This document shows, piece by piece, positions 8,110 through 33,599 of a DNA stretch of 33,599 bases. Within the stretch, counting starts at the first letter, position 1; each line of letters opens with the position of its first letter. A program made the position numbers and the translations under genes. Source of the DNA: Chiloscyllium plagiosum (Eukaryota); the NCBI RefSeq assembly GCF_004010195.1, contig NC_057751.1, positions 14,950,172-14,983,770 of the forward strand, read 5' to 3'. The notes under the pieces are model-generated. The model was not told where the DNA came from. It saw nothing but the letters and a program-made list of their open reading frames with translations, and did no database searches.

Positions 8110-8237
8110 ATGAAGAAGGGTTATACCCAAAACATTGACTTCTCCACCTCCTGGTGCTGACTGGCTTGCTGTGTTCTTCCAGTCTCCTGCTTGTGTACCT
8201 TGGATTCCGGCATTTGCAGTTTTTTTTTGTCTCTAAC
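8110..8237 (+). mobile_element. Degenerate hammerhead-bearing PLE-derived fragment
   Basis: aTGAAGA-a-GGGT-tat-ACCC-aAAAC-ATT, followed by a tail resembling family A (..gctgactggcttgctgtgttcttccag..gcatttgcagt). Confidence 0.6.
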
Positions 8238-8794
8238 CGAACTTTAATGATGACAATCTGAAAGTGTTCCTCTGTACCATTGGTGACTGCAGTATCTGAC
8301 CCATTATCAACCTACACCAACACAACAGAATTTAGAGACATTCCAGATTAGTGCAAGAATGAAACGTCACTGTGTAAAACAGGAATATAGAAAAGTGCAT
8401 TTCAGTGATTCTTTCACCAGCTTCAGTTTCCTCTTTTGAACTGTGAGAGTGCATGTCACCATATTTGACAGTGTTATGGCCGAATAGGTCAGTGATTTCA
8501 TTGAAGAGTGGTGACTCATTAACGTTTTTAATTGTTGAAATTTCCCTTATTTGTTTCCTGTAACTGAACCATCAGTAGGTAGACAGACTAATCCTCCAAA
8601 GCGTCAGTTACCATGGAACCCCACTGTCGGTATTTGAATGGTGAAATACAGATTGAATGTATGAACTGAAATTGAATTCTGATGAGCTAATCTTCAAGGG
8701 CTACAAGCAAACTGCAGAAGTTGAAATGACAGAAACAACTTTCATTGATATTGAGTTGTCACAGCCACTAGATCTCTAAGTGCTTCACATTGGA

Positions 8795-9990
8795 GTTATA
8801 GAGTCATACAGCGGAGAAACAGGCTGGTCGGTCCAAGTGTTCATGCTGACCAGTTTCCTAAACTGAACTAGTCCCATTTGCTAGCATTTGGGCCATCTGC
8901 CTCTGAACCTTTCCTAGCAGTGTACTTGTTCAAATGTCTTTTAACTGTTGTAATTGTACCTGCCTCTACCATTTCCTCTGGCAGCTCGTTCCATATATGC
9001 ACCACCCTCTGAAAAGTTGCCCCTAAGGTCCCTCTTTCTCCTCTCACCTTAAAATATGCCCTTTAGTTTTGGACTCCTCTACCCTGAGTAAAAGACCTTG
9101 GCTATTCACCTTATCTATTCCCCTCATGATTTTATAAACCTCTTCAGCCTCCTCTGCACCAGTGGAAATACGACCCATCCTAACCAACCTCTCCTTATAA
9201 CTCGAGCCTTCCAGGTTTCATAGCATCCTTGTAAATCTTTCTTGCACCTTTTCAGGATAACAATACTGTGGCGTTAAGAGGTGTATCTTGTCTTTTTTTT
9301 CAAAATGAAGAGAGGTTGAGACAGAGGCACTGAGTAGAATGTTCCAAGCCAATCAACTAAATAGTTTGTGAAGCCTTAGGTTTTTTAAAATAACATTAGG
9401 ACAATAGAAGCAGACTGAATGAGTAGAGTCAGGTTCCAACAGAACCAGGGTTTTAGTTTATCTTTCAGTGATTGTTGGGGTTTTGAAGTTGGCTCTCTCT
9501 CATGCTCTCTTCCTCTACCCCAGAATTTCTTCTCTATGCTAAAGGCAAAAGCTTGGATTCTCTCTGTCTCACGTGCGATTCTGGCAGCAATCTGTTTGAC
9601 TGAATTTCCAGTCATGTTACTATATTGGAACTGTTGCTGTTTAGTTGTTAAATAATCAATTATTCTGTTGTCTATTTTCCAATAGAGTTAAAGTTACACC
9701 AATTCTTCTTCCTTTTGTCTGTTTTTTGAACTATGGGGGCAAGAATAAAGTGTGTTTTGCTTAAAGCCAAACAATGTAACCAGTTGAATTACATTTAGAA
9801 CACAGCACCTTTATGCTTATCTTTGAATTAGATAAAAGTTAGGGTCTAGGTACCTCCTTGATCTATTTGGGGGGGGGGGGGTTTGGTCTGGTCCATAACA
9901 TCAGTTTAATAACACCCTTCCTACAGCAGGGTGACCAGAATTGTACACAGTACTCAAAATATGACCTTACCAATATCTTGAACAGCTGTA
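8795..9990 (-). mobile_element. CR1 3' end split by the 9256-9900 insert
   Basis: High similarity to the CR1 3' ends at 20350, 23212 and 25103. Confidence 0.85.
9256..9900 (+). mobile_element. Solo-LTR-like insert (645 bp) interrupting a CR1
   Basis: The CR1 sequence resumes on both sides, with a 4-bp TSD TCAG (9252-9255 and 9901-9904). It ends in ATAACA with AATAAA near 9744. The 5' end (GATAAC) lacks the canonical TG. Confidence 0.6.
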
Positions 9991-11349
9991 AACTCTGCTT
10001 CCTGAGTTTATGTACAAATTACTTCTCGTTCCAAAGCTAATAATAGGCTGTCACTGACAAATGCTCTAGCAGTACAGGTGCCCAGTTCTTGCAGTAGAGA
10101 GTCAGTTACTCTGTCTGCCAAGGATATTTCCTGATAGCCTGCACACTGAACCTCTTTGTTTTCCAGTTTGAGTCTAAAGCTGTCAAGCCTGATAAGACCA
10201 GATTACATCCTCAACAGCAATTCATTCCATTCCAGCCTCTCCATGTCTACTGTTTCAGGTGGATGTAAAATTACTTGCAAGAAGAGCAGGGGAAAAGTCT
10301 GTCTGGTGTTGACATTGTGTCACTGAAATAGATTATTTGCACATTGGTGTTTATGGAATCCTGCTGTGCATAAATTGACCACTGTCATATTTCAGGAAAC
10401 ACAATGATTTCAAACCACGTAATGTAAACATTCTGGGTCACCCTGAGGTCATGAAATGCTCTTCAAAAATCCAAGCCTTTTGGTTTACTATTGCTATTTT
10501 CTCGAATGACAGAGGATCCGGAACTGTTATGCTAAATTCAAAAACTGCTCCTGTTCCTTAATGATGCAAAGTCATGATAGTCCGAGGTGACCTTTGAAGA
10601 GCTTCTTGAGTGCATTTCAGTGACGGACAGCAGTGTGCTCAACAGTTATCTTGCTGCTGCTAGTAGCTTGACTACCTTGGTAGATTGACTCATGTCTGTT
10701 TGGTTTGGGCCTCCCCTGTGTCTTAATCTTGTAGCAGGCCATGCATGCTGACCTTCACATGGCGATCTGCAGTAAGCCATTCAGTGCATCATTATAGTTC
10801 TGTAGTTTGGGAATCTGCTACCAATTTAAACCTCTCTGCTCATGGTTATGGTGATGTGAATTTGGAATGCTCCAGTTTCTATCCCCAGACGATCTCTCCC
10901 AGCACATAGTGAGGCCATTCAGTCTGTTGTACCAGTGCCAATCCTCTTTGTGTAATCTGTTGATTCCTATTTCCTATACAATCGAAGGTCCCATCATTTT
11001 TTAAAGTATTCTCTCACTCATTATTTGTTTATGAAAGATTTTGCAGTTCCCTTTAAGGTCACCCAATGATATTCTCCTCTTCATCTTTTTTGTATCATTT
11101 TTCAATTTCCTTAATCATTCTGTATCGTGATCGGTTTTCAATTATTTTCTGTTTTATCAAAAAAAATCCTTTTCTCTCTTTTTATATTAACTTTGCTCCA
11201 TTTACTTTGTCATTCTGGGAGCTCTATTTTTGGATGCCTCAACTTGTATCTCTTTGACAGTATGTCTGGACTGAGCTCAAATATTCTTGCCTTGAGGATC
11301 TGCCAATGTTCATTCACTGTTCTTAACCACTTCTTTGTCTGCACTCAGT

Positions 11350-11591
11350 GGGCGGCACGGTGGCACAGTGGTTAGCACTGCTGCCTCACAGCCGGGTGCT
11401 CCGGTTTCCTCCCACAGTCCAAAGATGTGCAGGTCAGGTGAATTAGCCATGCTAAATTGCCCAGAATGTTAGGCGCATTAGTCAGAGGGGTAAATGTAGG
11501 GGTATGGGTGGGTTTCGCTTCGGCGGGTCGGTGTGGACTTGTTGGGCCGAAGGGCCTGTTTCCACACTGTAATGTAATCTAATCTAATCTA
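11350..11591 (+). mobile_element. HE1-type tRNA-derived V-SINE with internal deletion
   Basis: GGGCGGCACGGTGGCACAGTGGTTAGCACTGCTGCCTCACAGC head containing the A box, joined directly to the V-domain segment cgggtgctccggtttcctcccacagtccaaaga, so the B box is lost. It has a CR1-like tail (gggccgaagggcctgtttcc) and ends in (AATCT)n. Confidence 0.88.
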
Positions 11592-12114
11592 TGCTCGAGC
11601 TCTTCTCAAATTGGTCAAATTAACTCTATTCCTGTTTGATATATTTTACCTCTAATTTTTCTTGTCCTGTTCCATAATCATATTGAACCTCCTTATGTTC
11701 TGATCGCCATTATCTAGTTACTCCCAAAGATACTTCAATTATCCTATATCACTTTCTGGAACTAAATCCAGTGCTGCTTCAGTCCTCATTGGTCCAGAAC
11801 TGCACAAATTAAGGAAGTTCTCCTGGATGGAATTGAAAAAAAAAATTATTATCCTCTTACCCGCCATTCTGGATTTTCTCTCAGACTAAAATTAGGTTAA
11901 TTGGAATCTCATACTATTACTGATATTACACTAACTGTTACATTACACTAAATTCTCTGAAATTACCATACAGGTGAGCTCCATTAGCTGCTCCTTATTT
12001 CAGTGTCTACAGTAAACACCCAGCAAAATAACAGCTGTTTCTTTCTATTCCTTAGCACAAACAGATTTTGACTTGTATTTTGCCTCCTGTTAAATCTTAA
12101 ACATTATAAAAATT

Positions 12115-13830
12115 AGAGAATGTACAAAGGAGGTGCAGGAATAGGACATGTTGTCCACAAAGCCCAGTTGCCAATGAACATGCTCATGACTGATCCTCTA
12201 TCTTAAGATCATACTAAGATCTCTCTCCATCCCCTTTGATACCATTAGCCTCCAAAAATCAATTTCTTTCTTAAATATATTGAGTTACTTGGCCTCCCTC
12301 CTTCTGTGGGAGCAAATTCCAATGAGTGAAGAAATTTCTTCTTATCTTAGTCCAGCGTGGTTCACCTCATATCCTGAGGCCATGCTCCCTAGTTCTCGAC
12401 CCCATGCCAGATGAGGTATCATCCCTGCATCTAATTTGTCCAGCCCTTCTCAAAGTTTGTATGGTTCAGTGACATCCTCCTGTCGTTCATCTAAACTCCA
12501 GTGAAGACAAGTCTAGTTGACCCAGTCTTTCTTCAGACAATAAATATGCCAATCCAGGAACCAGTCTAGTGAACCTTTTGCTTTTTCTTTTAATTAGGAA
12601 GTAAATCATTACTTAGATGAGGTCAAAACTGCACATAACAGTCCAGGTGAAGGCTCACAAGGAGCTGCAATGAGACTTGCTTACTCCTGTACTGAAATCA
12701 GTTTGCCTTCCTATTGCTTACTGCATCTGTATGCTTTGTTTCTGTGACTGCTGTGCAAGGACATCCAGGCCATGTTCCTTCTAAGCAGCTACTGGGAAGT
12801 TCTGTATATGTCACTTGGCATGTTGACGCATTACTTCTGCTCCTGGAAGCTGCAGCCATTCATGGACAGGAAATGACAAGGAATGTTGCACCCAGGGGCC
12901 CCTTGTACATCAACATTTCTTGATTTATCACCATTTTATTAATATTCTCCATTGCCGTTCTCTACCAAAATAGCCAGGTTCACACTGATCCACATTACAC
13001 TGCATCTGCCAGACATTTGTCCATTCTCTCAACTTGTCTAAACCACCTTGAAACCTCATTATATCCTCCCATCACTCAGAAGCCCACTAAATTTATGTCA
13101 TTGGCAAAATTGAGAAGATTTTTGATATACATTATGAATAGCTGGGGCCAAGCAATGATTCCTGTTATGCCTCACTATTCACTACTTTCCACTCCAGAAA
13201 AGAACCATTTATGTGTGTTTTCTGTTTGTGAACCAATTCTCAGGCCATGCCACAACATTACCTCTAATCCTAGATACTTAGATTTTGCTTTGATTTTATG
13301 GGGAACTTTATCAAAGGCCTTCCGAAAATCTAAATACACCAAATCCACTGATTCTCTCTCATCTATTCGACTGGTTATGTCCTCAGAAAACTCCAGTAGG
13401 TTTGTCAAACATGATTTCTCTTTCAAAAATCCGTGTTGATTTTATGTGATCCAGTTGTTATTTTCTAAGTATTCTGTTATCACATCCTTTACAATAAACT
13501 CCAGTATTTTCCCCACTACTCCTGTTCAGCTAACTAGTCTCTAATTTCTGGTTTTCTCCCTCCTTTTTTTAAATATTGGGGTTACATTTGCCACTCACCA
13601 ATGGACCAGGATTGTTCCAGAATCTAGAATTTGGGAAGATTACAACCGACATCCACTATTCCCATTGCCGCTTTCTTTAAACCCTGGGATGTAGATTATC
13701 AGGCTCTGAGGGTATGTTAGTTTCCAGTCCTGTTAATTTTTCCAGCATGTTTTTAATTAATACTAATCTTCTGCAACCCTTCTTTTACTGTCTACATGTG
13801 TTTCTCGAGTATTTTTGGAAAGTTCTGTGA
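12115..13830 (-). mobile_element. Degenerate CR1 LINE fragment
   Basis: ORF 13175-13426 contains KSCLTNLLEFSED..VDLVYLDFRKAFDKVPH. Confidence 0.88.
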
Positions 13831-13954
13831 AGGGAGAATTGAAGAAGTATTATCTTGTTCAAGACTGCCACACCCCCTTCTGTCCTTTCCACTTCCTTAT
13901 CCGTCTTGTATATATTGTAGTTTCCATTCCTGTCCATCTTAAAACCAGATCCCT

Positions 13955-14331
13955 GCTAGGGAGGGAGGTAATGTTGTGGTATTGTAAATGTTATGGGACT
14001 GGCAATCTGGAGTTCAAGGCCACTGCTCTTCACATCCCACCACAGCGGCTTCTGGAGCTTAAAATCAATGAATAAATTCGGAATACAAGGCTTCTCTTGA
14101 TAGTTGTAGTGATAAAACTGTTATTAATTTTTCTAAAAGGCCACCAGGTTTACTATAGAAAGGAAATCTGCCTGTCCTGCACAGTCTGGTCCACCTATGA
14201 TTGCAGATTCACAACAATCTGGTTAACTATTTGTGCCCTCTGAAATGACTCAGTCACTCACTTGAAGGGCATTTAGGGATTGGCAATAAATGCTCGTGTT
14301 GCCATTGGTGCTCATGAAAATGTATGAAAAA
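13955..14331 (+). mobile_element. Old SINE-like element; a related copy lies on the minus strand at about 1590-1950
   Basis: The two loci share segments (ggaaatctgc.gtcct...ctggtc..cctatga) and the gggca.ttagggat.ggcaataaatgct tail also seen near 250, 22830 and 22960. Confidence 0.55.
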
Positions 14332-15314
14332 GTGTAAAGTAACTAATTTTGTTTGTAATCCACACAGACTAACACCCAAGCTAGTTGGCTTTGCACTTCC
14401 CCTCCATCTAATTCTTTTCGCTTCCACACTATTCTTTGTTCAGTTGCTCCTTGTCTCTCAGTTTACTTCTCTCCTCTCTGCTGCTCTCTCCTGATTGCTG
14501 TTCCTTTGCCAAATACATTTAAATGTATCAGCTTTCCCCCCACAGCATTGGTTAACCTCACTGTCAGGACACTGATCCCAGGAACAACAACAACTGTTGA
14601 ATTCATTTAACACCTTTTAAATTGTAAAACATCCAAACGCACTTCACAGGTATAACCAAACAGAATTTAACACTGAGCTGCATAAGGAAATATTCAGACA
14701 ACTGACCCAAAGTGGTATGTTTTAAGGAATGATATAAAGGAAGATGAAATATCAAAGAGATTTTGGGAAGAAATTTGAGAGCTCAGGGCCATACGTAGAC
14801 AAATGGGACTTATTAAGTTTGGGATACTGAGTTGGCGTGAACGAGTTAGACGGAAGGATCTGTTTCCATGCAGAACGACTTTATGAAGGCAAGGTGGCCA
14901 TGGTGGAATGGTTAGAATTGGGAATGTGAATGAATTTGAGGTTTTCAGAGGGCTATTGGAGATTACAGAGAGAGCCTTGTGGATATTCCATGAAGGGATT
15001 TGAAAAGATGAATGAAATTTTCCAATTGAGGTGTTGTTTCACTGGAAGCCATTTACAGGTTAGAATGCAACAGGGCCAAACACAACTAAGTTAAATGTAT
15101 GATCAGGTTTTAAAATAAACAATCAAAGGATTTGCATTTATATAGCACTTTTTCCGAGGGTGTAACAAAGCACTCTGCAGTCAGTAAAATATATATGAAG
15201 TATTGCAATGCAAGAGATGTAGCCCATTTGCAGACACCAAGATCCTGTCCACATCAATGTTATAATGATCAGATCATCTATGTTTTTGTGAATCAGAATT
15301 CATCTGATGAAAGG

Positions 15315-16182
15315 TAGAAACATGAATATCATCATTCAAAATGATTGTGACCGATTATCCAACTCAGTACTCAGTTCCTGCTTTTGCTACATATCTCTTT
15401 GATCCCTTTACCCCCAAGAATTATATTTATCTCCATCTTAAAAACATGTAATGTTTTAGCCTCAACCTATTTCTGTGGCAGATCATTCTACAAGTTCATC
15501 AATGTCTGGGTGAAGACCATCGCAGTCCTAAATGACCTAACTGGTGACCTTAAACAATAAACCCTGGTTCCAAACTCTCTGGTTATTGGGATCGTCCTTC
15601 CTGCATTTACTCTGTCTAGTCCTGTTGGAATTTTACAAGTTTCTATGAGATGCCCCTTCCCCAGGCTTCTGAACTCCAGTGAATATCTGATCCAGTCTGT
15701 CTTCAGATGGCAGTCGTGCCATCCCTAGAATCAGTCTGGTAAACTATTGTTGCACTTCTACCTTAGATAGAACATCCTTCTTCAGATAAGGAGACCAAAA
15801 CTGCACATAACACTCCAGGGTGTGCTCTCACCAAGGCCTTGTACAATTGCAGCAAAACATCCTTGCTCCTGTTTTCAAATTCTTTCGTGATGAAAGCCAT
15901 CGTACCATTTGCTTCCTCCACCATCTGCTTCAAATGCAATCTTACTTTAAGCAATTGGTGTACAAGAACACCCAAGTCTCCTCCTTGCACCTTCCCCTTT
16001 CCCAATCTATTGCCCCTCAAATAATAAACTGCCTTCCTGTTTTTGTTATTAAAGAGGATAATCTTATTCTTATCTACATTAAAAGCCATCTGCCATGCGT
16101 TTGCCCACTCCCTCAACTTGTACAAATCAGACTGAAGTTCCTCTGCATCTTTCTCACAGTTTGCCTCCCCACTGAGCTTTGT
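15315..16182 (-). mobile_element. CR1 LINE 3' fragment
   Basis: ORF 15763-16125 contains WANAWQMAFNVDK and LLQLYKALVRAH. Confidence 0.88.
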
Positions 16183-16684
16183 ATGGAAAGATCATAAACT
16201 TTAACCTTGTTTCTCCCTCCACAGATGCTGTCATATCTGCCGAGAAATTTCTGTTTTTAATACATAAGATAACATTCTGTTTTAGCAAGGTCAGAATCAT
16301 AGGATTTGTGATTGTTGACTTAATATTTGGAGCATATTTGGATTCTGGACTCTGTGAAGGAAACAGTTGAAAGGCATTTAACTTGGCAGCAACTCAAACC
16401 AAACTGAAGTTTGTGAGAAAGCATGTTTTGGCAACTATACTGCAGCTTTTGAAAGATATACATGGGATGTGAATGTTGCCAGCAAGGCTGGCATCCATTG
16501 CCCATCCTGAATTGCCCTTGAGAAGCTGGTAATTGCACAATTGGAATCATGGACTGCTAAAACCACATATGCTCAGCATTGTCTGTGATGGTTCTTTGTA
16601 AAAGCAGTTCATTTACTCCTGGTTCTATGGTCTTTGCTTTTTTTTTGTCTATTCCAATAATTACTTCATTCTGTTTTGTTAGCG

Positions 16685-17127
16685 TCTATTTGAAACCATT
16701 AGCTTTTGGAGCACTGCTCCTTCATCAAACGTTAGTGAGAGAAGACTTTCGACACAGAATTTATAAGGAAAAGAGCAAAGGGTCATACACCTTATGTGCA
16801 CAAATGTGTGTTCAATTTGTTCGCATGACTTGTATAACCCTTTGATCTTTTGCTTGGAAGAAGCTAGACACAGAACTTATAAGAAAAAAGATCAAAGGAT
16901 CATACAACTCATGAACACTGGTGTGTGTTCAATTTGTTCGCATGACTTGTATAACCCTTTGATCTTTTCCTTATAAGTTCTGTGTGTAAGGTCCTCCTCT
17001 CTCACTAACACTTGAAGAAGGAGCAGCACTCTGAAAGTTAGTTTTCAAATAAACCCGTTGGGCTATAACCTGGTGTTGTGTGATTTTTGACTTTGTCCAG
17101 CCCAGTTCAATACCGACACCTTCACGT
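16685..17127. mobile_element. Palindromic PLE-derived element related to family B, with internal tandem duplication
   Basis: Inverted degenerate hammerhead motifs at 16700-16728 (-) and 17012-17040 (+). It shares the aaataaacc.gttgg.c.ataac.tggtgttgtgtgat end with the 18430-19173 element. Confidence 0.78.
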
Positions 17128-18065: not shown

Positions 18066-18708
18066 ATAAACCAGGAGGTCTCATAAAGAGATTTTCATCC
18101 TAGCACCCAGGTAACGCAATAATGCTTTGGGATGGGCTATGATTCTACCTTCCAATGATACATAAAATGATGTTTGGGTCTTTACGTGACCACAAGATCA
18201 CATGAAATAGGAACGGGGAGCTGTTTTGGTCCTTCAAGCCTGCTCTGCCATTCAATAGGATCATGGCTGATCCAACGTTGCTCACATCCACCTTCCTGCC
18301 TTTTCCCTATAACCCTTGAATCCCTATTGATCAGGAATTGATCCATCTCAGCCTTAATTATAGAGAAGAACTCTGCTCCCACAGCTCTCTGTGGCACGGA
18401 GTTCCAAAGACTCTCAACCTCTCAGAGAATGATGTGGAGGTGCCAATGATTAGACTGGGGTAGACCAAGCCAACAATCACACAACACCAAGTTTTGGTCC
18501 AACAGGTTTATTGAGAAGTATTAGCTTTCTAAGCGCTGTTCCTTCATCAGGTGCTCCCCGTTCCTATTTCATGTGATCTTGTGGTCACGTAAAGACGCAA
18601 ACATCATTTTATGTATCATTGGAAGGTGGAATCATAGCCCATCCCAAAGCATTATTGCGTTACCTGGGTGCTAGGATGAAAATCTCTTTATGAGACCTCC
18701 TGGTTTAT
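18066..18708. repeat. Near-perfect inverted duplication: 156-bp arms at 18066-18221 and 18553-18708, 331-bp spacer
   Basis: Base-by-base reverse-complement comparison shows two mismatches in 156 nt. Confidence 0.95.
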
Positions 18709-19790
18709 CGAAGACACAGAATTTAGAGCAAAAGACCACAGTGTCACGTAACTGAAACGATATATTGAACAAACCTAGATTGCTGTTAAGTCTCCCATCT
18801 TTTAGAATGAGTTGCAGGTTTCAGTTCATTACTATGTTACTCCTAGAACTTATTTCAAGTGATATTCTTGAGATAACTTAAGGTATTATAAAAAAAAGGT
18901 GACATCTCAGCTCAGACAATGCATTAAAGGTATGAGGTTCGAGTCTGTCTGTATCCCAATCTTGAGACTAGTTCTGTTTCCAAATTAGGAATTTATAAAA
19001 GGTTTGTTCAATATATTGTTTCAGTTGCATGACATTGTGGTCCTTTGCTATAAACTCTGTGTCTTATGATCCTGCTCCACAGCTACCCGATGAAGGAGCA
19101 GTGCTCCAAAAGCTAGTACTTCCAAATAAACCTGTTGGACAATAACTTGGTGTTGTGTGATCTTTAACTTTAACTCAGAGAAGAAATTCCTCCTCTTAAA
19201 GGCACCCCTTTGTTCTGACACCATGCCCTCTGGTACTAAACTCACCCATAAGGGGCAACATTCTGTCAGCATTTACTCTGTCAAGCCCCTTAGGAATCCC
19301 ATATGTTTCAATGAGCAGACTCCCAGCCTGTTTAGCCTTTGCTCATAAGACAATCCTTCCATACTGGGGATCCTCCGAGTGAACCTTTTCTGAACTACCT
19401 CCAATGAAATAAGGGGATCACAACTGCTCACAATACTCAAGATGTGCACTCACCTGCATCTTTCCAGATGCAGTAAGACTTCCCTCCACTTATACTCCAA
19501 TCCCTTGTAATAAGAGCCAATACTCCATTAGTCTTCCTGATTACTTGCTGCACCTGTATGCTAGCTTTCCATGTTTGGTGAACAATTCAGCCTGAAGTCC
19601 CTTTTCTGTTGCAACTTTCTGCAGTTTTTCCCTCATGCTCTGTGTTTTCTTTTTCTTTCCAAAATTAATAACTTCACATTTTCTAACATTATACCTATTT
19701 GCCAACCTTTTTTGCCCAATTACTTAACTTATCAATGTCTCTCTGTAAATTATTTGTATTCTTCTCCCAAAGTTGCCTTTCCACCTATTT
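18190..19790 (-). mobile_element. CR1 3' fragment (18190-18429 and 19174-19790) split by the family B element
   Basis: ORF 18182-18397 (LPQRAVGAE..IKAEMDQFL) is CR1 ORF2 C-terminus-like, and the sequence resumes after the TSD. Confidence 0.82.
18430..19173. mobile_element. Palindromic PLE-derived element, family B, inserted in a CR1 3' end
   Basis: 9-bp TSD ctcagagaa (18421-18429 and 19174-19182). Diverged inverted arms at about 18466-18776 and 19000-19171, with a tail of about 36 nt at 18430-18465. Hammerhead-like motifs lie at 18522-18550 (-) and 19084-19118 (+; tac-CCGATGA-a-GGAGC-agt-GCTCC-AAAA-GCTA-gta). Confidence 0.82.
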
Positions 19791-21609: not shown

Positions 21610-21714
21610 ATGAGTCGACCGCCCTCCTCTCAGAACCTGAGCTGTGGAGCATGGGAGATGAAGGAACGATTGGGGACTGGAGGTTTTGGGAATGTCAACC
21701 GATGGACTAACAAG
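21610..21714 (+). CDS. IKBKB: IKK-beta, first coding exon (aa 1-35, includes the kinase Gly-rich loop)
   Basis: Translates to [35 protein letters not shown], matching the IKK-beta N-terminus as I recall it ([21 protein letters not shown]) better than CHUK/IKK-alpha. Polypyrimidine tract and AG acceptor (ttctcttttgccttcag) end at 21597. The ATG has A at -3. Coding length is 105 nt, followed by a phase-0 GT donor at 21715. Confidence 0.96.
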
Positions 21715-21734
21715 GTAGTGTTTGCTAAGTTTGA

Positions 21735-21928
21735 GAGAAAGTGAGGGCTGCAGATGCTGCAGATCAGAGCTGAAAATGTGTTGCTGGAAAAGCGCAGTAG
21801 GTCAGGCAGCATCCAAGGAACAGGAGAATTGACGTTTCCTGAAGAAGGGCTTATGCCCGAAACGTCGATTCTCCTGTTCCTTGGATGCTGCCTGACCTGC
21901 TGCGCTTTTCCAGCAACACATTTTCAGC
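21735..21928. mobile_element. Palindromic non-autonomous PLE-derived element, family A, copy 1
   Basis: 14-bp TSD tttgctaagtttga (21721-21734 and 21929-21942). Inverted arms 21768-21838 and 21859-21929 are 71 nt with two mismatches, both G-U in RNA. A 33-nt unpaired tail occupies 21735-21767. Confidence 0.88.
21839..21866 (+). ncRNA. Minimal hammerhead ribozyme motif, intact core, sense to IKBKB
   Basis: CTGAAGA-a-GGGC-ttat-GCCC-GAAAC-GTC, with the ACGT palindrome at helix III. Predicted cleavage is after C21866. Stem I is only about 2 bp. Confidence 0.75.
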
Positions 21929-22369
21929 TTTGCTAAGTTTGAATTGCACCAGAGCGCTTGAGTGCAGGCAGGAAAGGTTCTGAATTCTCGTTTTCCTTCC
22001 TCGTTTAGAACATTTCTTTGGAAGTTCGAGTTCTGACTTGTTTTAAACTTTTATGCATTCTGACTGGGCATGAGTAAAGTATTAAATGAATCCAGCAATG
22101 GGGGTAGAATAGAGGCAGAATGGCTATGCACTGAAAAATTCCTCTTGACAGAACATGGTTTTTCTATGGCATAAAAGTCTCACGGTTTGCTCATTATATG
22201 GTTATTTTGCGACTTATTTTATTAAGTTGTTCAGTGACTTGGTCTAATGATCCCATGACCCAAGTTCAAATCTGGACATCTGGGGACCTGAAATTAAATA
22301 ACTGCAATGACAAGCTTGAATCAGTAATAGTGACCATGAAACTAATGGAACGACTGTGGCCACAAAAGG

Positions 22370-22885: not shown

Positions 22886-23211
22886 AAAAAGGACACAGTT
22901 TTAACTCAGCACGTTAGTTACTTCTCAGTTGTGTAGAAGGCTCATCATCATATTTCTGTGGGCAATTAAGAATGGACAATAAATGCTGACTTTTCAATGA
23001 ATGAATAAGGGGGGAAGAAATGCTGTGATCTAGCTAAATGAGTGCTTCCTCCTTGCTTTTCTAAAATACATCAAATAATGTTAGTGCATTGTTGCTGGTG
23101 TTCGGGGACAAAAATAACCAAGTTCAAAGTGCCCCTTCAGCTCACTTAAATTTCTGCTTTGTGTTTGGCTCAATGTTCTTGGTTATCTGATGTGTGACAC
23201 TTAATTGCTCA

Positions 23212-23640: not shown

Positions 23641-23859
23641 GGGAAGGTGTTGCAGAATTTGAGTGAGTGGAGAGCTTTAAGGTGCTCGATATGGGTAGTC
23701 TTACGTTTCTATGCATTAATATTGATTTTCTGCCTGCAAGGACACAACAAATCAAAGCTGAGGAAAGACCCTTTTAATCTACGAAGACTATGCCTCTTGT
23801 TTTTGTCTCTTTAACAGTACTACATTCCCAACTGTCGTGCTTGTTCAACAATGCTGTGC

Positions 23860-24176
23860 TCCCTCACTCCTCCTCCTCTGATGCAGTACTTCCTCAGTAT
23901 TTCACCTCCAACAGTGCAATATCATCCTCCGTACTGATCATCTGACACTGCAATACTCCCTCATTACTGACCCTCTGAAAGCCCAGAATTCCTTCAGCAC
24001 TGATCCTCCAACAGTGCAGAATTCCTTCATTATTGACCCTCTGACAATGCAGAACTCCCTCAGTGCTGCATTGGCAGTATTAGCCCAGATTTTGTGCTGA
24101 AGTCTCTGAAACGAGGCTTGAATCCTTGACCTCTGTATCAAGGTGAAAGGGGTCCCACTGAGACACTGAGCTGACC
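23860..24176 (-). repeat. Degenerate minisatellite (about six 32-bp units) expanded from a DeuSINE-like element, with the SINE head at about 24080-24176
   Basis: Repeated unit approximating ccctctgacagtgcagaactccctcagtactga. The periodicity is visible in ORF 23938-24141 (REFCIVRGS..KEFCTVGGS..KEFWAFRGS). Confidence 0.75.
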
Positions 24177-25102: not shown

Positions 25103-25470
25103 TAGAATCAGAGCGTCAGAGACAGATACAGCACGGAAACAGACTCTTCGGTCCAACCCGTCTTCGCCGACCAGATATCCAAACCTATACTAGTCCCATG
25201 TGCCAGCACTTGGCCCACATCCCTCTAAACACTTCCTAATCATACACCCATCCAGTTGCCTTTTAAATGCTGTAATTGTACCAGCCTCCTCCACTTCCTT
25301 TGGCAGCTTATTCCATACACGCACCACCCTCTGCATGAAAAAGTTGCCCCTTAGGTCCCTTTTAAATCTTACCCCTCTCACCCTAAACCTATGCTGTCCA
25401 GTTCGGGATTCCCCTACCCCAGGGAAAAGACCTTGTCTGTTTATCCTATCTATGCCTCTCATGATTTTGA
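25103..25470 (-). mobile_element. CR1 3' end
   Basis: ORF 25190-25489 contains KIMRGIDR..RGNFFMQRVVRVWNKLP. Confidence 0.9.
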
Positions 25471-25956
25471 TCCATGCCCCCACTGACATCCCCTCTCATC
25501 ACAGCTCACTCTCCTTACCAGGTTATACTTGGGGAAATAACTTCACTCTTTGTGAATAATTCTAGGAAATTGGACTTTTAAAAAATATTGTGCATGGAAT
25601 TCAGATTTCAGTGATCAGATCAGAATAACAGTGCAAAATATTATATCAATGCCAGCTCCTTTGTTCATGTTTTCCTTTAATTCCATTCCCCACAGCACTG
25701 TAAATTCTTTGACTTGAAATATTTGCCTCATTTCCCTTTCGAATGTTGCAGTCATATCTGCTTCTATGATGCTTTCTTGCAATTTATTCCAGATGTGCTT
25801 AAATCAAAAAGCCTAATTTTCTTTCCAGTTTTTTTTATAGAGTCATGGAGTCCTACAGCACGTAGACAGGCCCTTTGGCCCAAACTGTTCCATGCCGACC
25901 AAAAGGTCCATCCAAGCCAACCCCATTTCCCTGCACTTGGCCCATCTTCTCATCAG

Positions 25957-26169
25957 GGAGGAGAAAGTGAGGGCTGCAGATGCTGGAGATCAGAGCTGAA
26001 AATGTGTTGCTGGAAAAGTGCAGCAGGTCAGGCAGCATCCAAGGAACAGGAAAATCGACGTTTCGGGCATAAGCCCTTCCTGAAGAAGGGCTTATGCCTG
26101 AAACGTCGATTCTCCTGTTCCTTGGATGCTGTCCGACCTGCTGCGCTTTTCCAGCAACACATTTTCAGC
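25957..26169. mobile_element. Palindromic PLE-derived element, family A, copy 2, inserted in a CR1 3' end
   Basis: TSD (gc)ccatcttctcatcag at 25940-25956 and 26168-26184. Same GAGAAAGTGAGGGCTGCAGATG tail and same ...TTTTCAGC end as copy 1, with longer inverted arms. Confidence 0.88.
26080..26107 (+). ncRNA. Minimal hammerhead ribozyme motif, intact core, sense to IKBKB
   Basis: CTGAAGA-a-GGGC-ttat-GCCT-GAAAC-GTC, with a G-U pair at the base of stem II. Confidence 0.7.
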
Positions 26170-27329
26170 CCATCTTCTCATCAGCCTTTCCTATCCATGC
26201 ATTTCTCCAAATGCCTTTGAAATGTTGTTTATGTCTCAGCCTCCACCACTTCCACTGGCAGCTTATTCCATATGCGTACCACCCTCTGTATAAAAATGTT
26301 GCCTCTCAAGTTCCCTTTTATTCTTTCCCCTCTCGCCTTAAACTAATGACCTGTAGTCCTTGATTCCCCAATCCTGGGAAAAAGACTGAGTGGTTCACTC
26401 TATCATGCCTCTCATAGTCTTAGACGCCTCCATAAGGTCCCACCTCAGTCTCCTTTGCTCTAAAGAAAAAGTCCTAGCTTGTCCAACCTCTCTCTCTGTG
26501 ACTCAGACCCTTGAATCCAGGCAATATCCTTGTAAATTTCTTCTGCACTCTTTTCCAGTTTAATAACATCCTTCATAAGTATGGCCGCACCAACGACCTA
26601 TATAACTTCAACATAACTTCTCAACTTCTATTCTCAGTGCCCTGACTGATGAGGGCCAGTGTGCCAAAAGCCTTCTTCACGGGCCTGTCTACCTGTGACT
26701 CCAATTTCAGAGAACTGTGAACCTGAACTCCAAGATCCCTCTGTTCCACTACACTCCTTAAGGCCCTCCCATCCACCATGAAACTCTTACCTTGATTTGA
26801 CTTTCCAAAATGCAAGACTTCACGCTTATCCATATTAAACTCCATTTGCCATTTCTTGCCCACTTCCCCAGCTGGTCAAGGTCCTGATGCAATTTCCGAT
26901 AACCTTCCTCATTATGCACTATGCTGCCTATTTTAGTGTCATCAGCAAACTGACTAACCATGCTTTGTACATTCTCATCCAAATCATTGATATAGATGAC
27001 AAACAGTAATGAGCCCAGTACCGGCCCCTGAGGCACCCCACTAGTCGCAGGCCTTCAGTCTGACAAACATCCTTCCACTATTACCCTCTGCTTCCTCCCG
27101 GCAAGCCAAATGTGTATCCAATTTTCCAGCTCCCCCTGGAATCTCTGTGATCTAACCTTCCAGAGCAGCCTACCATGTGGAACTTTATCAAAGGCCTTAA
27201 TGAAATCCATATAGTCTGTCTACTGCCCTGCCCTCGTCAACCTTCCTGGTCACTTCATCAAACAACTACAACAAATTTGTGAGGCATGATCTCCCATGTA
27301 CAAATCCATGCTGGCTACTCTTAAGCAAA

Positions 27330-27437
27330 GCTGAAAATGTGTTGCTGGAAAAGCACAGCAGGTCAGGCAGCATCCAAGGAACAGGCGAATCGACGTTTCG
27401 GGCATAAGCCCTTCTTCAGGAATGAGGAAAGTGTGTC
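27330..27437 (-). mobile_element. Monomeric (single-arm) family A PLE-derived element inside a CR1
   Basis: Matches one arm of copies 1 and 2. 12-bp TSD with one mismatch, ctcttaa(g/a)caaa, at 27318-27329 and 27438-27449. Confidence 0.85.
27392..27419 (-). ncRNA. Minimal hammerhead ribozyme motif, intact core, antisense to IKBKB
   Basis: Minus strand reads attc-CTGAAGA-a-GGGC-ttat-GCCC-GAAAC-GTC-gatt. Confidence 0.75.
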
Positions 27438-28369
27438 CTCTTAAACAAACCCTGTCTTTCCAAATCATGTCCATCTTATCTTATCGGAATCTTTTCGAGT
27501 AACTTACCACCACAGGTGTTAGGCTTACTGGTCTATAGTTCCCAGGTTTTTCTTTGCAGCCCTTCTGAAATAAGGGCACAATATTCGCTACCCTCCGGTC
27601 TTCCGGGACCTCGCCTGTGGCTAACGATGCAAAAATATCATCCAGGGCCCCCACTTCTCTCGCTTCTTGCAGTGTTCTTGAGTATATCTCATCAGGACCA
27701 GGTGATTTATCCACTTTCATACATTCTAATACATCCAACACCATCTCAAATGTGATATGGACTGTCCCCAAGATATTGCCACTAATTTCCCCAAGTTCCC
27801 AAGTCTTCATGTCTTTCACCTTGGTAAACACAGAGGAGAAATATTCCTTGAGAACCTCACTCATCACCTACAGTTTGACAAATACATGTCCACTTTGGTC
27901 CTTGAGGGGTCCTATTCTTTCCCTGTTTTTTCTTTACCTTTACTATACTGAAAGAACCTCTTTGGATTCATCCTAATCTTTTCAACCAAGGCTATCTGGT
28001 GTCCCCTTTACACCATCCTGATATCCTCCTTCTGTAAATTCATGTATTCCCTTGATCCCAGCTGCCTGTACCTGATCCACGCCTCCTTTTTCTGGTCAAA
28101 GCCTCAATATCGTTTTTCATCCAGGGTTCCCAATTCCTGCCAACCTTGCCTTTGACCGTCACAGGAACAGACAGGCATTTAACTTTAGCCATCTCTCTTT
28201 TAAATGCCTCCCACTTGCCAGAGATCCCTTTGCCTGCAAACAAACTACTCCAATCAATCCCTGTAAGCTGCTGTCTAATTCCATCAAAATTTGCCAATAA
28301 CTTTAAATTTGGATTCTTTGCTTATCACTGAAAACAGTTTCTATTTATTTATTTGTCAGAATCAATTAT

Positions 28370-29035
28370 CAGTCCTTGAACGGCCTCTTAACTATCCCTG
28401 CTCTAAGGAGATAAATTCTAGTTTCTCTTGTGTTTCACACAGCTTCATTTCTGATGGAATTTGGTAAATCTCCTCTGCATTCTTTCCAACGCCTTGTCTC
28501 CTTCAAGCGTGGTGCCCAAAAATGAGACAGTACTCCAGCTGGCCCCAAACTGATATTTTATAAGTCTTTACTCTGTCCTTGCTTTTGTCCTTTATGCATC
28601 TATTGATGAAGAAAAGGATCCCAGACTTCTCAACTTGTCTTGCTACCTTCAAAGATTGTGTGCTTACGTCTCCAGGTCTCTCTTTGCTTTCAAAATTGCA
28701 CCATATAAATTACGTTGCCTCTAAAATGGATCACTTCACACTTTTCTGCAGTCACATCATCCACTATCTGTCTGCCCATTTCACCAATCTGTCAACATAG
28801 TCTGCCACGACCACCTTCACTAAATACTGCATTTTCAGTTTTCATATCAGTTGCAAACTTTGAAGCAATGTCATGAAAACCTAAGTCTAGGTCATGAATA
28901 TAAATCAAAAAGAGCTGAACCCGGCGGAGCAACAATTAATACTTCTCTCCAGTCTGAATGAACCAGTCACAAGTACTGTCTGTCCCTTAGTCAATTTTGC
29001 AGCTGGACAGCGACTATCCCTTTAATCCATTAATG
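28370..29035 (-). mobile_element. Old degenerate CR1 fragment ending just upstream of the IKBKB acceptor
   Basis: Remnants such as cagtactccagctgg, tttcatatcagttgcaaactt and tcatgaatataaat match CR1 RT on the minus strand. Confidence 0.6.
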
Positions 29036-29074
29036 AGCTTGTTATTTGAGTATTTTTTGGTATTTTATTTTTAG

Positions 29075-29170
<96 letters not shown>

Positions 29171-29469
29171 TGAGGGCCCTGTCACCTGACCCTTCATCTT
29201 GGCTTGACACAGAGTGAGGGATCTGCCACTTATGTCCTGTGGATTGATCCAAGGATGATCACATATCCTTTCCCTGGTGCTCTTAGCTGATGACTTTTTA
29301 ATGTAAGAGGCTCGGGATGAAGGAGTTGGAGGGAGGTGAGATGTGGTGGTGGTATTGGAGAAAGGACTTGTAATTTGAGGTGTAACAACAAGACCCATTG
29401 TGAAATGTGCAAGGCGAAGACCTTGTAGGATTAAAGAAACTTAAAGTTTCAGTCTTATGAGTTTGGACA

Positions 29470-30032
29470 TCTCAAAGCACTTTGCGTTCGGTTACATTCT
29501 CTTGAGCTACATGGAGAAAACACAATAATTTTGCAAAACTCCCACAAACACACAATGTGGGAAGTAATCTGTTTTTATGATGTTTTTTGAAAGATAAATA
29601 CTGGCTAGAAACTATCACCGCCTGTGTCAGAGATGACAATGCAAGTTTTCCTCATGATGCTTCATCTCCCATTCAGCTCCTGCCACCCTCATCCCAATCA
29701 AAAAATTGCTAACCCTCTCATTTGAACAGTATGACTTCAGAAAAGAGGCACATTGTAACCTGAAGAATCCTGTGTCATTGGATGCCAAAGATAACTGCCC
29801 TGCTGTCTTCTTTAAAATAGTGGTTTCAAATCTTTTATGCCTGCCTGAAAAGGCATAAAACTCGCTGGTTTAAAGTCTCACCAGAAAGATGGTACTTCAG
29901 ACACGATTCTGCTCCTTCAGTCCTGCATTGCAGTGTCAGCTCAGAGTTTGGTGCTGAAGTCGTAGAGTGGGTCTTGAACCCAAAATGTCTGACTGAGAGG
30001 CAAGAATGCTACCCACTGAGCCACAGCTGACA
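29470..30032 (-). mobile_element. SacSINE1/DeuSINE-like SINE, degenerate and interrupted
   Basis: Minus-strand tRNA-like head tgtcagctgtggctcagtgggtagc...gggttcaagacccac followed by Deu-domain-like sequence. Family assignment is from recall. Confidence 0.65.
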
Positions 30033-30432
30033 ACTCAGAGGCAAAAGCTGGCTGGAGACAAGGAGATGGTATCAAGTCTGAAAGGAGAGGCATATTGCCA
30101 AGCTGCGGAACATAATCAGGTGTTGGAAGGGATAAAATGTTGAAAGAGAAAAGCCACTTTGAGTGACACCTTTCTGCAGATGTGACTGCAGTGGTGAGAC
30201 TGTAGCTTTTGAATATGTGCTAGTATTGTTCATGAGAAGGATGTATCTCTCTCTCTCTCTCTCTCGATTCCCAAGGGTGAGAGTATGATTCTCGAAGGGG
30301 CTGAATGCCAGACTAAATCTGCAAAACCATTCATCTCCCCACATTATGTCTGATTATCCAGAAGCTTCTGTGTGACTTACTCCTGATAACATAGCTGCAA
30401 GGGAGAACCAGTGACAGAGAAAAACACGTTTT

Positions 30433-30553
30433 ATCAGAGTTCTGAGGAAGGATCACTGGACCCGAAGTATTAACTCTGATTTCTCTTCTCAGGTGCTACC
30501 AGATCTGCTGAGCTTTTCCAGCAATTTTGTTTTTGTTTCTGATTTCCAGCATT
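30433..30553 (+). mobile_element. Degenerate hammerhead-bearing PLE-derived fragment, further family
   Basis: atcagagtt-CTGAGGA-a-GGATC-actg-GACCC-GAAg-tatt-aactctgat, with a perfect 9-bp stem I, followed by the family-typical ctgctgagcttttccagca tail. Confidence 0.62.
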
Positions 30554-31106
30554 TTACACATGTTATCATTCTCCCTCTCCAATTTTGGAAGCTTGGCATG
30601 CATTAGTTTGAGCAGTGGAAATCTCTGGCGTCAATGCAGAGAGTCTGTCCCATCTGTGCTTACCATGTTGTGATCAAATCTAAACATGCCGTGTTCCACA
30701 CACAAAGCAGGAAATTAGTTCTTCAAATTGCACAATGTCCAAACCACACTGTCTATAAACCATCACAGCTTGTTTAGATATTCTTTCCCTGAATAAACTG
30801 CCACTTTTGGCCTTCCTGTGTCAAGTTTACTTGACTTGGAGGTTTCTTTTTGCAATCATTTGAAATATTGCTCCTTGAGGACCAGCAGACGACCCTTTGG
30901 AAAACCTATGTATTGTTGATTTCGGTAACTGTTAAACGGCAGCAAGATTGGTATGTGGGTCAGACATTAAGGTATCAACAGCTATCTTGATCCCCTCACT
31001 CTTATCTCTCTTCCAGCTCCTGTTGTCACCCGTGGACGCTCCATTTCCACCTTCAACCACAATTGTCAACACTTCTGCATCAAGGATGCAAATTGGGAAA
31101 GGAGGC

Positions 31107-31338
31107 TGTTGCAATTGTATGGAGTTCAGCTAGGTGGATCTCATTAGAATCTGAGTTCCCTGATAGGGGCTGTTAATCTGGTCCAATCAGGGACCCCTCT
31201 GACAGATATAAACAGGAGTGTCAGACTGCTTGTTCACTCTGAGAACTGGCTCTGAGGGAGATGGATCAGTGTCAAGGATGCTCCATGCCTAAATAAATGA
31301 CTTAGTGATGGGATACTGGCCCCTGTGGAGTTAGTTCA
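31107..31338 (+). mobile_element. Solo LTR (232 bp), sense to IKBKB
   Basis: TG...CA termini and perfect 5-bp TSD GAGGC (31102-31106 and 31339-31343). CCAAT at 31183, TATAAA at 31207 and AATAAA at 31292 occur in LTR order. Confidence 0.8.
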
Positions 31339-31604
31339 GAGGCACTGTCTTAACCACAAACATTCTGCACTATTGGGAGAAATGCACATGAAATATTCTG
31401 AGTTCAGGGCCTGGCACAGAAGTGTCAACAAATTGGAGTTGAATTCTAGACTAGAACCTCAAAGCCAACGTTGGTCGCCACCTCTTGCCTTAGCAAGGAT
31501 GGGGAGAAATGTTGGTCATGAATTTCAGAGTACAGTCACCTCCACAATACTTGCCCAGATCAGCTGGCTCAGTTTTAGTTCCCCTAACTACAAAAGTCTT
31601 CATT

Positions 31605-32752
31605 TAGAACATAGAACAGTACAACACAGAACAGGCCCTTCAGCCCACGATGTTGTGCTGACCATTGATCCTCATGTAAGGTAAACCTAATGTATGAACC
31701 CTCAAATTTCTGTGACCATATGCATGTCCAGCAGTCTCTTAAATATCCCCAATGACCTCGCGTCCACAACTGCTGCTGGCAACGCATTCCATACTCCCAC
31801 AACTCTCTGCATAAAGAACCCACCTCTGACATCCCGTCTATACTTTCCGCCAAACAGCTTAAAACTATGACCCCTCGTGTTAATAATTTCTGCCCTGGGA
31901 AAAAGTCTCTGCTATCAACTCTATCTATGCCTCTCATTATCTTGTCTACCTCAATTAGGTCCCCTCTCTTCCTTCTTTTTTCCAATGAAAAAAGTCCAAG
32001 CTCAGTCAACCTCTCTTTGTAAGATAAGCCCTCCAGTCCAGGCAGCATCCTGGTAAACCTCCTCTGAACCCTCTCCAAAGCATCCACATCTTGCCTATAA
32101 TAGGGCGACCAGAACTGGACACAGTATTCCAAGTGCGGTCTAACCAAAGTTTTATAGAGCTGCAACAAGATCTCACGACTCTTAAACTCAATCCCCCTGT
32201 TAATGAAAGCCAAAACACCATATGTTTTCTTAACAACCCTGTCCACTTGGGTGGCCATTTTAAGGGATGTATGCACCTGCACACCAAGATTCCGCTGTTC
32301 CTCCACACTGGCAAGAATCCTATCCTTAATCCTGCACTCAACTTTCAAGTTCGACCTTCCAAAATGCATCACTTCGCATTTATCCAGGTTGAACTCCATC
32401 TGCCACCTCTCAGCCCATCTCTGTATCCAATTAATGTCACGCTGCAGCCTACAACAGTCCTCTATACTGTCAATGACACCTCCAACCTTTGTGTCATCTG
32501 CAAACTTGCTGACCCATCCTTCAATCCCCTCATCCAAGTCATTAATAAAAATTACAGAGTAGAGGCCCAAGGACAGAGCCCTGTGGAACACCACTCACCA
32601 AAGACTTCCAGGCAGATAACTTTCCTTCCACAACTGTCTTCTGTCGACCAGCCAGTTCTGTATCCACACAGCGAAATTTCCCTGTGTCCCATTCCTCCTG
32701 ACCTTCTGAACGAACCTACCATGGGGAACCTTATCAAATGACTTGCTGAAGT
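31605..32752 (-). mobile_element. Young 5'-truncated CR1 LINE (RT C-terminus and 3' UTR)
   Basis: ORF 31584-32594 has IFINDLDEG..SKFADDTK, WQMEFNLDKCEVMHFG, LYKTLVRPHLEYCVQFWSP and LERVQRRFTR. Frameshifts occur at both ends, and the 3' tail is ttctatgttcta. Confidence 0.95.
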
Positions 32753-32910
32753 AATTTAGTGAAAAAAAAATTGCTCTCTCTGGGGCATTAGGTCCAGGAC
32801 ATTCGACCTTTACATTATATATGTAAAGAAGTGATTAGCTGGTGCTGACACCTCCCTCCCTTTTATCTTTTCTTTTATTCCTGCTGCAGATCCTTAACAA
32901 CAATGGTGAT

Positions 32911-33599
32911 TCAAAGTTTGTGAGAAGATTTGTAGCTCGGGTGCTAGTTGTTGTGGTTCTGTTCGCCGAGCTGGGAATTTGTGTTGCAGACATTTCATCC
33001 CCTGTCGAGGTGACATCCTCAGTGCTTGGGAGCCTCCTGTGAGGCGCCTTTGTGATGTTTCCTAGTGATTTGTGATTATAGTGATTTGTACCTGCTGCTT
33101 CCGGTTGTCAGTTCCAGCTGTCCGCTGCACTGGCCGGTATATTGGGTCCAGGTCGTTGTGCTTATTGATTGAATCTGTGGATGAGTGCCATGCTTCTAGG
33201 AATTCGACTGGCTGTTCTCTGGCTTGTCCTATAATAGTAGCGTTGTCCCAGTCGAACTCATGTTGCTTGTCATCTGAGTGTGTGGCTACTAAGGATGGCT
33301 GGTCATGTCGTTTCGTGGCTCGTTGGTGTCCAGGGATGCGGATCGTTAGCTGTCTTCCTGTTTGTCCTATGTAGTGTTTTGTGCAGTCCTTGCATGGGAT
33401 TTTGTACACTACATTGGTTTTGCTCATGCTGGGTATCGGGTCCTTCGTCCTGGTGAGTTGTTGTCTGAGAGTGGCAGTTGGTTTGTGTGCTGTTATGAGT
33501 CCCAGTGGTCGCAGTAGTCTGGCTATCAGTTCAGAAATGTTTTTGATGTATGGTAGTGTGGCTAGTCCTTTGGGTTGCAGCATGTCCTCGTTCCGTTGT
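32911..33599 (-). mobile_element. 3' end of a Penelope-like retroelement with GIY-YIG endonuclease ORF (33062-33583); continues beyond the window
   Basis: The ORF contains TLPYI, NVVYKIPCKDCTKHYIGQTGR, H...H.FDWDN..II and FLEAWHS, which are typical PLE linker and GIY-YIG motifs. The 3' non-coding part carries a hammerhead-like motif. Confidence 0.92.
32986..33025 (-). ncRNA. Minimal hammerhead ribozyme motif in the PLE 3' region (CpG-decayed)
   Basis: Minus strand reads gca-CTGAGGA-t-GTCaCCT-cgac-AGGgGAT-GAAAT-GTC-tgc. Stem I is gca/tgc and the triplet is GUC; GAAAC appears mutated to GAAAT. Confidence 0.75.

Follow-up and report, generated by a model that had tools for sequence, protein, structure and literature searches.

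Minimal hammerhead motifs around IKBKB in Chiloscyllium plagiosum as parts of truncated Penelope-like elements

This work concerns a 33,599-nucleotide stretch of the Chiloscyllium plagiosum genome (contig NC_057751.1, positions 14,950,172 to 14,983,770; hereafter, the window), which includes exons of IKBKB and in which an earlier note had named 11 minimal hammerhead-ribozyme sites. Judged from their sequence, these motifs are mostly decayed minimal hammerheads on the truncated ends of ordinary protein-coding Penelope-like elements (PLEs). The inserts that hold them are very probably 5′-truncated retrotransposition products of six autonomous, endonuclease-bearing PLE families, for which an origin resembling that of strong-stop cDNA is proposed. 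The earlier note had rightly seen in them Penelope-type minimal type I hammerheads with a palindromic remnant of helix III, and the at least four families that it had distinguished have become six (A to F). It had also taken the inserts for separate, non-coding, retrozyme-like mini-elements. This view is not sustained: longer members run into their own endonuclease-coding sequence, the 5′ ends are ragged bar one hotspot, and head-to-tail tandems are rare.

Coding sequence behind the motifs

Endonuclease-coding sequence of Neptune or Poseidon type is reached upstream in the longer copies of five families out of six, weakly so in family B. For instance, a family A copy (L200) has a 674-aa open frame with matches to RVT_1 (E 2.5e-7) and GIY-YIG (E 3e-4, below the Pfam cut-off) and a Neptune-type CX4CX2C linker. 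The family A hammerhead lies 358 nt past the stop of this frame, and the 3′ end of the copy is 93.8% identical over 113 nt to the window stub at 27326-27438. Endonuclease-coding sequence also stands upstream of the motif, on the same strand, in copies of family C (L079, L074, and L082) and of family D (L132, E 5e-21; L142, E 3e-16). In family E, the motif follows a GIY-YIG frame in 23 of 29 loci, that is, those where the anchor was located, and a frame that begins with an ATG where stem II starts runs through the tail. Family B has a 3′ region of 500-740 nt behind a frame end with a weak endonuclease match (L053, E 0.002). In each family, the hammerhead lies within the last 90-130 nt, the pseudo-long terminal repeat (pLTR), and for this reason every stub carries it.

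The CX2-5CxxC linker is present in L200 and L079 and absent from the window fragment at 33062-33598. By the linker criterion of Craig et al. (2021, PMC8557442; for this and all other cited papers, statements refer to the portions examined), family E would be of Penelope/Poseidon type, while families A, C, and D are probably Neptune-type and B probably Neptune-like, a typing by this criterion and by domain matches. A Pfam scan gave no match for the window GIY-YIG fragment or for L079; an Atlas feature search gave GIY-YIG clusters at 0.96-0.97. The PLE at 32911-33599 had been proposed to show the class of helper that mobilises the other inserts. Nevertheless, it appears to be Poseidon-type, BLASTP found no similarity between the Poseidon-type and Neptune-type endonuclease fragments, and family E cannot be taken as the helper for A, C, and D, which have frames of their own. 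The Penelope origin itself is upheld. The earlier note had named a match to the termini of miniature inverted-repeat transposable elements (MITEs), which derive from DNA transposons, as evidence against it, and the matches obtained are to PLE 3′ ends. A MITE origin was rejected, since the inverted arms are optional and the junctions vary between copies, so that there are no fixed terminal inverted repeats and no fixed internal structure.

Exact family patterns occur genome-wide 30,393 times for A, 3,631 for B, 195 for C, 78 for D, and 2 for F, and their reversed controls 0 times; the family F pattern was a guess and, with 2 copies found, this family is poorly characterised. A generic core ending in ACGT gave 168,587 genome matches against 1,353 in controls, and one ending in AGCT gave 52,544 against 243, together about 221,000 matches with an intact core. 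One more hammerhead family of AGCT type, with another stem II and outside the six of the window, was seen at C1:178890-178916 and C1:402531-402557.

It had been claimed that the paired stems differ by family and yet stay complementary, and tallies of 71 core matches not selected for pairing, which come from five or six lineages, bear this out. The 10.1-11.1 pair is formed in 63 of the 71 (GC 44, GU 16). Further along stem II, 10.2-11.2 is mostly GC (42) or TA (16), and 10.3-11.3 is GC (30), CG (11), or AT (11). In stem I, 2.1-1.1 is CG in 31 and AT in 15, and 2.2-1.2 is TA in 31, CG in 16, and AT in 9. The extra base between 9 and 10.1 is A in 50 matches and T in 18, and the helix III palindrome is CG in 27 and GC in 10, with the CpG-decay forms TG (15) and CA (11) and 8 others. 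Compensatory base pairs thus occur across families in both stems, but with just five or six independent lineages this is a pattern and not a test of significance. Among 49 copies of family A, frequent non-CpG variants are confined to the two positions that are free to vary, N7 and loop II. This is what selection on source elements, together with decay of inserted copies, would be expected to produce. The core is intact in 16 of 72 unselected copies that span the motif.

Position of the 5′ ends and a proposed route of insertion

The insertions have the Penelope signature of 5′ truncation, an inverted head-to-head partner, an optional tail of about 35 nt, and a target duplication. The optional tail appears as two alternative 3′ ends about 35 nt apart (bimodal) within families. 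Among 126 unselected copies, 31 pairs are head-to-head, 3 head-to-tail, and 2 tail-to-tail. Target duplications of 9-17 bp score above the 95% null in six of the eight window units tested; the units at 8110 and 16186 do not exceed it, and the one at 32911 leaves the window.

The 5′ ends were mapped, relative to C3, on copies from fixed-position stretches, so that the core was unselected. The resulting set of 108 omits copies at N or at a sequence edge, copies ending before +60, and family F. In this set, 39 ends fall at -12 to 0, 21 at +1 to +12, 22 further upstream, and 21 elsewhere; 5 lie within 3 nt of the predicted cut site, which is the background rate. The stop rate per nucleotide is 0.049 at -12 to 0 and 0.021 at +1 to +12, compared with 0.006-0.012 in seven other bins. 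A second set of 104 copies, taken from the flanks of other loci, agrees, with 37 ends at -12 to 0. This hotspot at the upstream edge of the ribozyme is found in five families and two clades. Since 36 of 40 solo copies have no upstream flank in common, hidden subfamily sequence does not account for it. A splice acceptor just upstream of the core, described in D. virilis (PMC4209133), was tried as its cause and set aside: families C, D, and E and part of the B copies have an AG 2-4 nt upstream, the main A and remaining B copies lack it, and no upstream exon common to copies was found, which leaves the idea unsupported.

As the 5′ ends are off the cut site and piled at the upstream edge, the template of reverse transcriptase (RT) would be mostly uncut RNA, in line with PAc, a green anole element of Poseidon type (Frangieh et al. 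2024, PMC11167929). The same observation bears on non-LTR retrozymes (LTR, long terminal repeat), whose tandem units are excised by the ribozyme, circularised, and reinserted, and which have the type I hammerhead and PLE origin in common with these families (bioRxiv 10.64898/2026.07.22.740005). Such a route is very improbable here: beyond the position of the 5′ ends and the mere 3 head-to-tail pairs, the window has no hammerhead-bearing tandem array, the motif is of the minimal and not the canonical form, and the families carry protein-coding sequence.

In the mechanism that we propose, the GIY-YIG domain would nick the target, by inference from PAc, and RT would initiate at an internal position of the RNA, either about 90 or about 125 nt downstream of the core, following measurements on the anole element. 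RT would then copy through the uncut ribozyme and most often run off the 5′ end of the RNA, which would lie at the foot of stem I if this is where the pLTR sets the start of transcription; PMC6765202 states that pLTRs have promoters. The short, strong-stop-like cDNA would become linked to the target either by itself or together with another copy in inverted orientation. Once inserted, stubs would decay neutrally, chiefly at CpG, with no monomer cleavage expected, and the structure would be maintained by selection on source elements and not on inserted copies. The dimer helix, of 4 bp, is computed at about -1.7 to -2.5 kcal/mol. Cleavage by dimers was reportedly treated by Luense, Weinberg and Breaker in 2016. 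Published minimal motifs cleave poorly even as dimers, or need protein (PMC4209133, PMC11167929), and PAc ribozyme mutants still insert (PMC11167929). The complete scheme, in which a pLTR promoter starts the RNA at the stem I foot, an internal RT start 90-130 nt downstream gives a strong-stop cDNA for direct integration, and some stubs might be re-mobilised in the manner of short interspersed elements (SINEs), is advanced tentatively, at somewhat short of an even chance.

The last step of this mechanism has a rival, in which the pile-up of 5′ ends reflects stalling or template switching of RT at a folded, protein-bound, or dimerised ribozyme, while the RNA itself continues upstream. Between run-off and such a stall the odds are about even, although as a full account of the pile-up the stall is a minority possibility. 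The ends match the outer end of the 2-4 bp stem I, the short complementarity of whose two strands would help, inversion junctions use microhomology in or near the core, and the stop rate is already raised at +1 to +12. Furthermore, the PAc protein is reported to aid ribozyme folding (PMC11167929). Against this, RT should reach the 5′ strand of stem I after its partner has been copied, when the helix should be gone; the stop rate is back at background immediately upstream of -12; and the boundary is common to five families with different stems.

A further possibility is that the stubs of 95-130 nt are a SINE-like, non-autonomous lineage that is itself transcribed and relies on the cognate PLE protein for copying in trans. 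Stubs far exceed long copies (only those 22 of 108 reach beyond -12), a single 32-mer has the 30,393 exact genome matches given above, family RNA is found in a poly(A) library, and non-autonomous PLE derivatives have been described (PMC8557442, PMC3846280). This explanation is nevertheless unlikely, as stubs are 94-100% identical to coding or long copies, junctions and inverted arms vary from copy to copy, and the lack of a common upstream flank in most solo copies leaves little sign of descent of stub from stub.

RNA was sampled from two raw-read runs of one sample. Run X22 yielded no aligned reads. Run X21, a poly(A) single-cell library of which about 2% was read, gave 2,694 reads, of which 2,017 are only 90-95% alike and thus come from other copies. 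Across many copies, the reads include 102 loose ends and 18 opposite-strand joints at -4. At position 27385, 67 reads depart from family A and continue, on the antisense side, in an A-rich loose end (agreement 0.45), possibly through antisense polyadenylation or a subfamily difference.

Several observations weigh against truncated retrotransposition from autonomous elements with a strong-stop-like end. The coding link is weak in family B and untraced in family F, and the start of the open reading frame (ORF) and the promoter lie outside the recovered sequence in families A-D. No full-length copy with two direct pLTRs was found among the loci retrieved, which were not searched for one systematically. 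The reads show no site where many molecules begin or end, though fragmented poly(A) single-cell reads could hardly show one. Regarding the hotspot, 4 of 40 solo copies do have an upstream flank in common with another copy, those starting at -12 to 0 have a clear target duplication (above null) in only 9 of 40 cases, with about 2 expected, and local alignment shifts ends by a few bases in old copies.

The copies around IKBKB

The repeats of the window and the two IKBKB exons are as follows (strand in brackets; a dot marks insertions with inverted arms).

8111..8225 (+): family C (Neptune-type) 3′ stub with tail, truncated within the hammerhead core, three core or palindrome defects; target duplication 10/12, under the 95% null threshold
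15304..15315 (+): probable 5′ part of a family F hammerhead, severed by a CR1-like insertion at about 15316-16185; 12 letters identical to L157/L158
16186..16251 (+): degenerate 3′ part of a family F stub; nhmmer E 1e-6
16684..17124 (.): family B insertion of two arms head to head (minus 16684-16792, plus 16973-17124), the core broken in each, with a 117-bp duplicated spacer between them; target duplication 14/17
18429..19173 (.): family B head-to-head insertion, long minus copy 18429-18553 and 18711-18999, plus copy 19000-19173; exact 9-bp target duplication
21610..21714 (+): IKBKB first coding exon; IKK-beta match E 2e-10
21735..21932 (.): family A fold-back insertion whose hammerhead, 21839-21866 (+), is intact, lies sense to IKBKB 125 nt into the intron, and has its GAAA and palindrome locked in a hairpin of about 83 bp; exact 14-bp target duplication
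25959..26170 (.): family A fold-back insertion, hammerhead 26080-26107 (+) fully paired to the inverted arm; exact 17-bp target duplication
27326..27438 (-): family A solo stub whose hammerhead, 27419-27392, is intact, unsequestered, and antisense to IKBKB; target duplication 11/12
29075..29169 (+): IKBKB second coding exon; IKK-beta match E 6e-15
30438..30552 (+): family D (Neptune-type) stub with its start 4 nt upstream of the core, which is broken at 15.1-15.2; target duplication 11/13
32911..33599 (-): family E Poseidon-type PLE, GIY-YIG frame end 33062-33598, hammerhead 33022-32989, pLTR end, and tail; it extends out of the window to an assembly gap and to an inverted pLTR with a second hammerhead, about 2.7 kb beyond

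All 11 named sites lie within repeats of families that have a minimal type I hammerhead as their motif; to this extent the earlier count stands. It does not stand as a count of intact motifs, as 4 of the 11 pass a strict descriptor (CTGANGA, an optional extra base, stem II of at least 3 bp, GAAA, and a palindromic NN-T-H) and 2 are undamaged. The strict sites are 21839+, 26080+, 27392-, and 32989-, while Markov shuffles (30 of order 1 and 30 of order 3) gave a mean of 0.03 and a maximum of 1; with one core mismatch allowed, the window has 5 sites where chance predicts about 1.1. Genomic copies of each family were used to build profiles, and these match 10 of the 11 sites directly, and 15304 through its detached 3′ part at 16186-16251 alone; the 12 letters at 15304-15315 are plausibly the 5′ part of this hammerhead. 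The 11 motifs make up nine insertion events, as 16700/17012 and 18522/19087 are head-to-head pairs with one target duplication per pair. An Rfam scan of the window at E up to 10 gave 12 matches, none to a hammerhead family and some weak ones to microRNA hairpins on the fold-back inserts; the miss is no evidence against the motif because the motif lacks helix III.

Read against their families, 21839 and 27392 are undamaged. Three copies keep the core with one stem or palindrome change: 26080 has a G10.1-U wobble, 32986 has decayed CpG sites in its palindrome and its stem II closing pair, and 18522 has a broken stem II closing pair. The core CUGANGA...GAAA...UH is thus intact in 5 of the 11, of which 4 satisfy the full descriptor. 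The other six are broken: 8110 lacks C3 and has G12A and a broken palindrome, 16700 has C3U and G12A, 17012 has C3U and an altered palindrome, 19087 has U4C and G12A, 30442 has lost A15.1 and the palindrome, and 15304 is interrupted by the CR1-like insert of about 870 bp. The 9-bp stem I (atcagagtt/aactctgat) that had been listed as a family feature is not one: its outer four bases belong to the left target duplication at 30424-30436, and the upstream sequence of the family (L132, L142) forms a shorter pairing.

The assignment of the locus to IKBKB is confirmed by the two exons, which match IKK-beta. Motif density around them is at the genome level, and the locus is not special in this respect. 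Core-spanning copies number 12 in 33.6 kb of window, or one per 2.8 kb, compared with 48 in 188.5 kb (C1-C18) and 42 in 185.9 kb (C42) of a background of 40 fixed-position 10-kb stretches, or one per 4.2 kb (Poisson P 0.12); the profiles derive from families seen in the window, a bias in the window's favour. Intact cores number 4 against 2.1 expected (P 0.16). The very high density that had been remarked upon is therefore real in absolute terms, with roughly 850,000 remains extrapolated genome-wide, and nothing particular to IKBKB. There is no sign of a role at the gene. That the motifs regulate IKBKB, for instance through dimerisation of the sense intron copies 21839 and 26080 and cutting of the pre-mRNA, is hardly credible. 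These two near-intact sense cores do lie 4.2 kb apart in one intron, but both are locked in hairpins (P of GAAA and palindrome being unpaired, 0.00), the sole free intact copy is antisense, density equals the background, and the 4-bp dimer helix is worth only the small energy given above.

The fold-back inserts at 21735-21932 and 25959-26170 form near-perfect RNA hairpins of 83-97 bp in the IKBKB intron, one of them 20 nt from the splice donor, and they are possible substrates of adenosine-to-inosine editing. Within the older family B insertion, a 156-bp inverted copy of nearby DNA, 99% identical (18066-18221 versus 18553-18708), stands 3 nt upstream of the hammerhead core in place of about 18 nt of the insertion. 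It has no match among the other genomic loci retrieved and reflects either recent, local switching of template or an artefact of assembly. The other family B pair holds a 117-bp direct duplication between its two heads, at 16751-16972; the duplication is itself partly palindromic, and the middle likewise has no match among the other loci retrieved.

Other repeats of the window include a tRNA-headed SINE at about 11352-11590, which presumably resembles the elasmobranch V-SINE HE1. There are also numerous 3′ fragments of CR1-like long interspersed elements (31584-32594 and many other stretches, with a weak RVT_1 match in one frame), and a 33-bp tandem repeat of four copies at 23932-24062 with an inverted relative 18 kb off at 5534-5571. 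Elsewhere, at locus L154, broken retrovirus-like pol and env pieces (362-1451, 3314-3796) adjoin a Poseidon-type insertion.

Significance and comparison with known systems

Minimal hammerheads on truncated Penelope ends have been known since their description in 2014. The very high copy number of this genome (about 221,000 intact cores) and its young family A make it a good source for the question of what PLE hammerheads do. Because the 5′ ends are at the upstream edge and off the cut site, they argue against cleaved RNA as the template and give a precise prediction of the RNA start. If the proposed mechanism is true, several hundred thousand stubs would be a fossil map of transcription start and abortive first-strand synthesis, and the minimal hammerhead would be mainly a 5′-terminal RNA module, not a cutter that makes the template. 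A search of sources other than subscription papers, Repbase, Dfam, and supplements found no published account of the motifs in sharks and none of a hammerhead-associated hotspot of truncation.

The closest descriptions are those of minimal hammerhead ribozymes in the pLTRs of metazoan PLEs (Cervera and de la Pena 2014, PMC4209133). These have in common with the shark motifs a type I core without helix III, a palindromic 15.2-16.2, the extra base between 9 and 10.1, the G10.1-C11.1 pair, and many families per genome. They are also mostly single motifs, ascribed there to truncated PLEs, with opposite-strand pairs about 100-700 bp apart. The systems differ in scale: a looser pattern gives about 221,000 core matches here, and the numbers there are about 4,000 in coelacanth and 9,000 in Xenopus. 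They differ also in stem II, which is shorter (4 bp) in families A and C. The portions of that paper examined name no cartilaginous fish.

Similarly, PAc (PMC11167929) has two internal RT start sites that give an optional tail of 30-40 nt, an uncut RNA as its main template, no RNA-seq ends at the cut site and, as in family E, an ORF start at hammerhead stem II. By contrast, it is a Poseidon element, whereas families A, C, and D are probably Neptune-type, and the portions of the paper examined describe no genomic pile-up of 5′ ends at the upstream edge of the ribozyme.

Insertions of endonuclease-bearing PLEs in general (Craig et al. 2021, PMC8557442; Arkhipova et al. 2013, PMC3846280) show the same strong 5′ truncation, adjacent inverted 5′-truncated copy, and tail at one end, with target duplications of 8-10 bp and with the CX2-5CxxC linker as the mark of Neptune. 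The difference is that most copies here are cut to the last 90-130 nt and end at a hotspot defined by the hammerhead. Finally, non-LTR retrozymes (Cervera and de la Pena 2020, PMC7229834; Li et al. 2026, bioRxiv 10.64898/2026.07.22.740005), reported in the sole chondrichthyan sampled, likewise have a type I hammerhead and PLE ancestry. However, they are head-to-tail tandems with mostly canonical ribozymes and circular RNAs, whereas the shark copies are dispersed or head-to-head truncated ends with minimal motifs.

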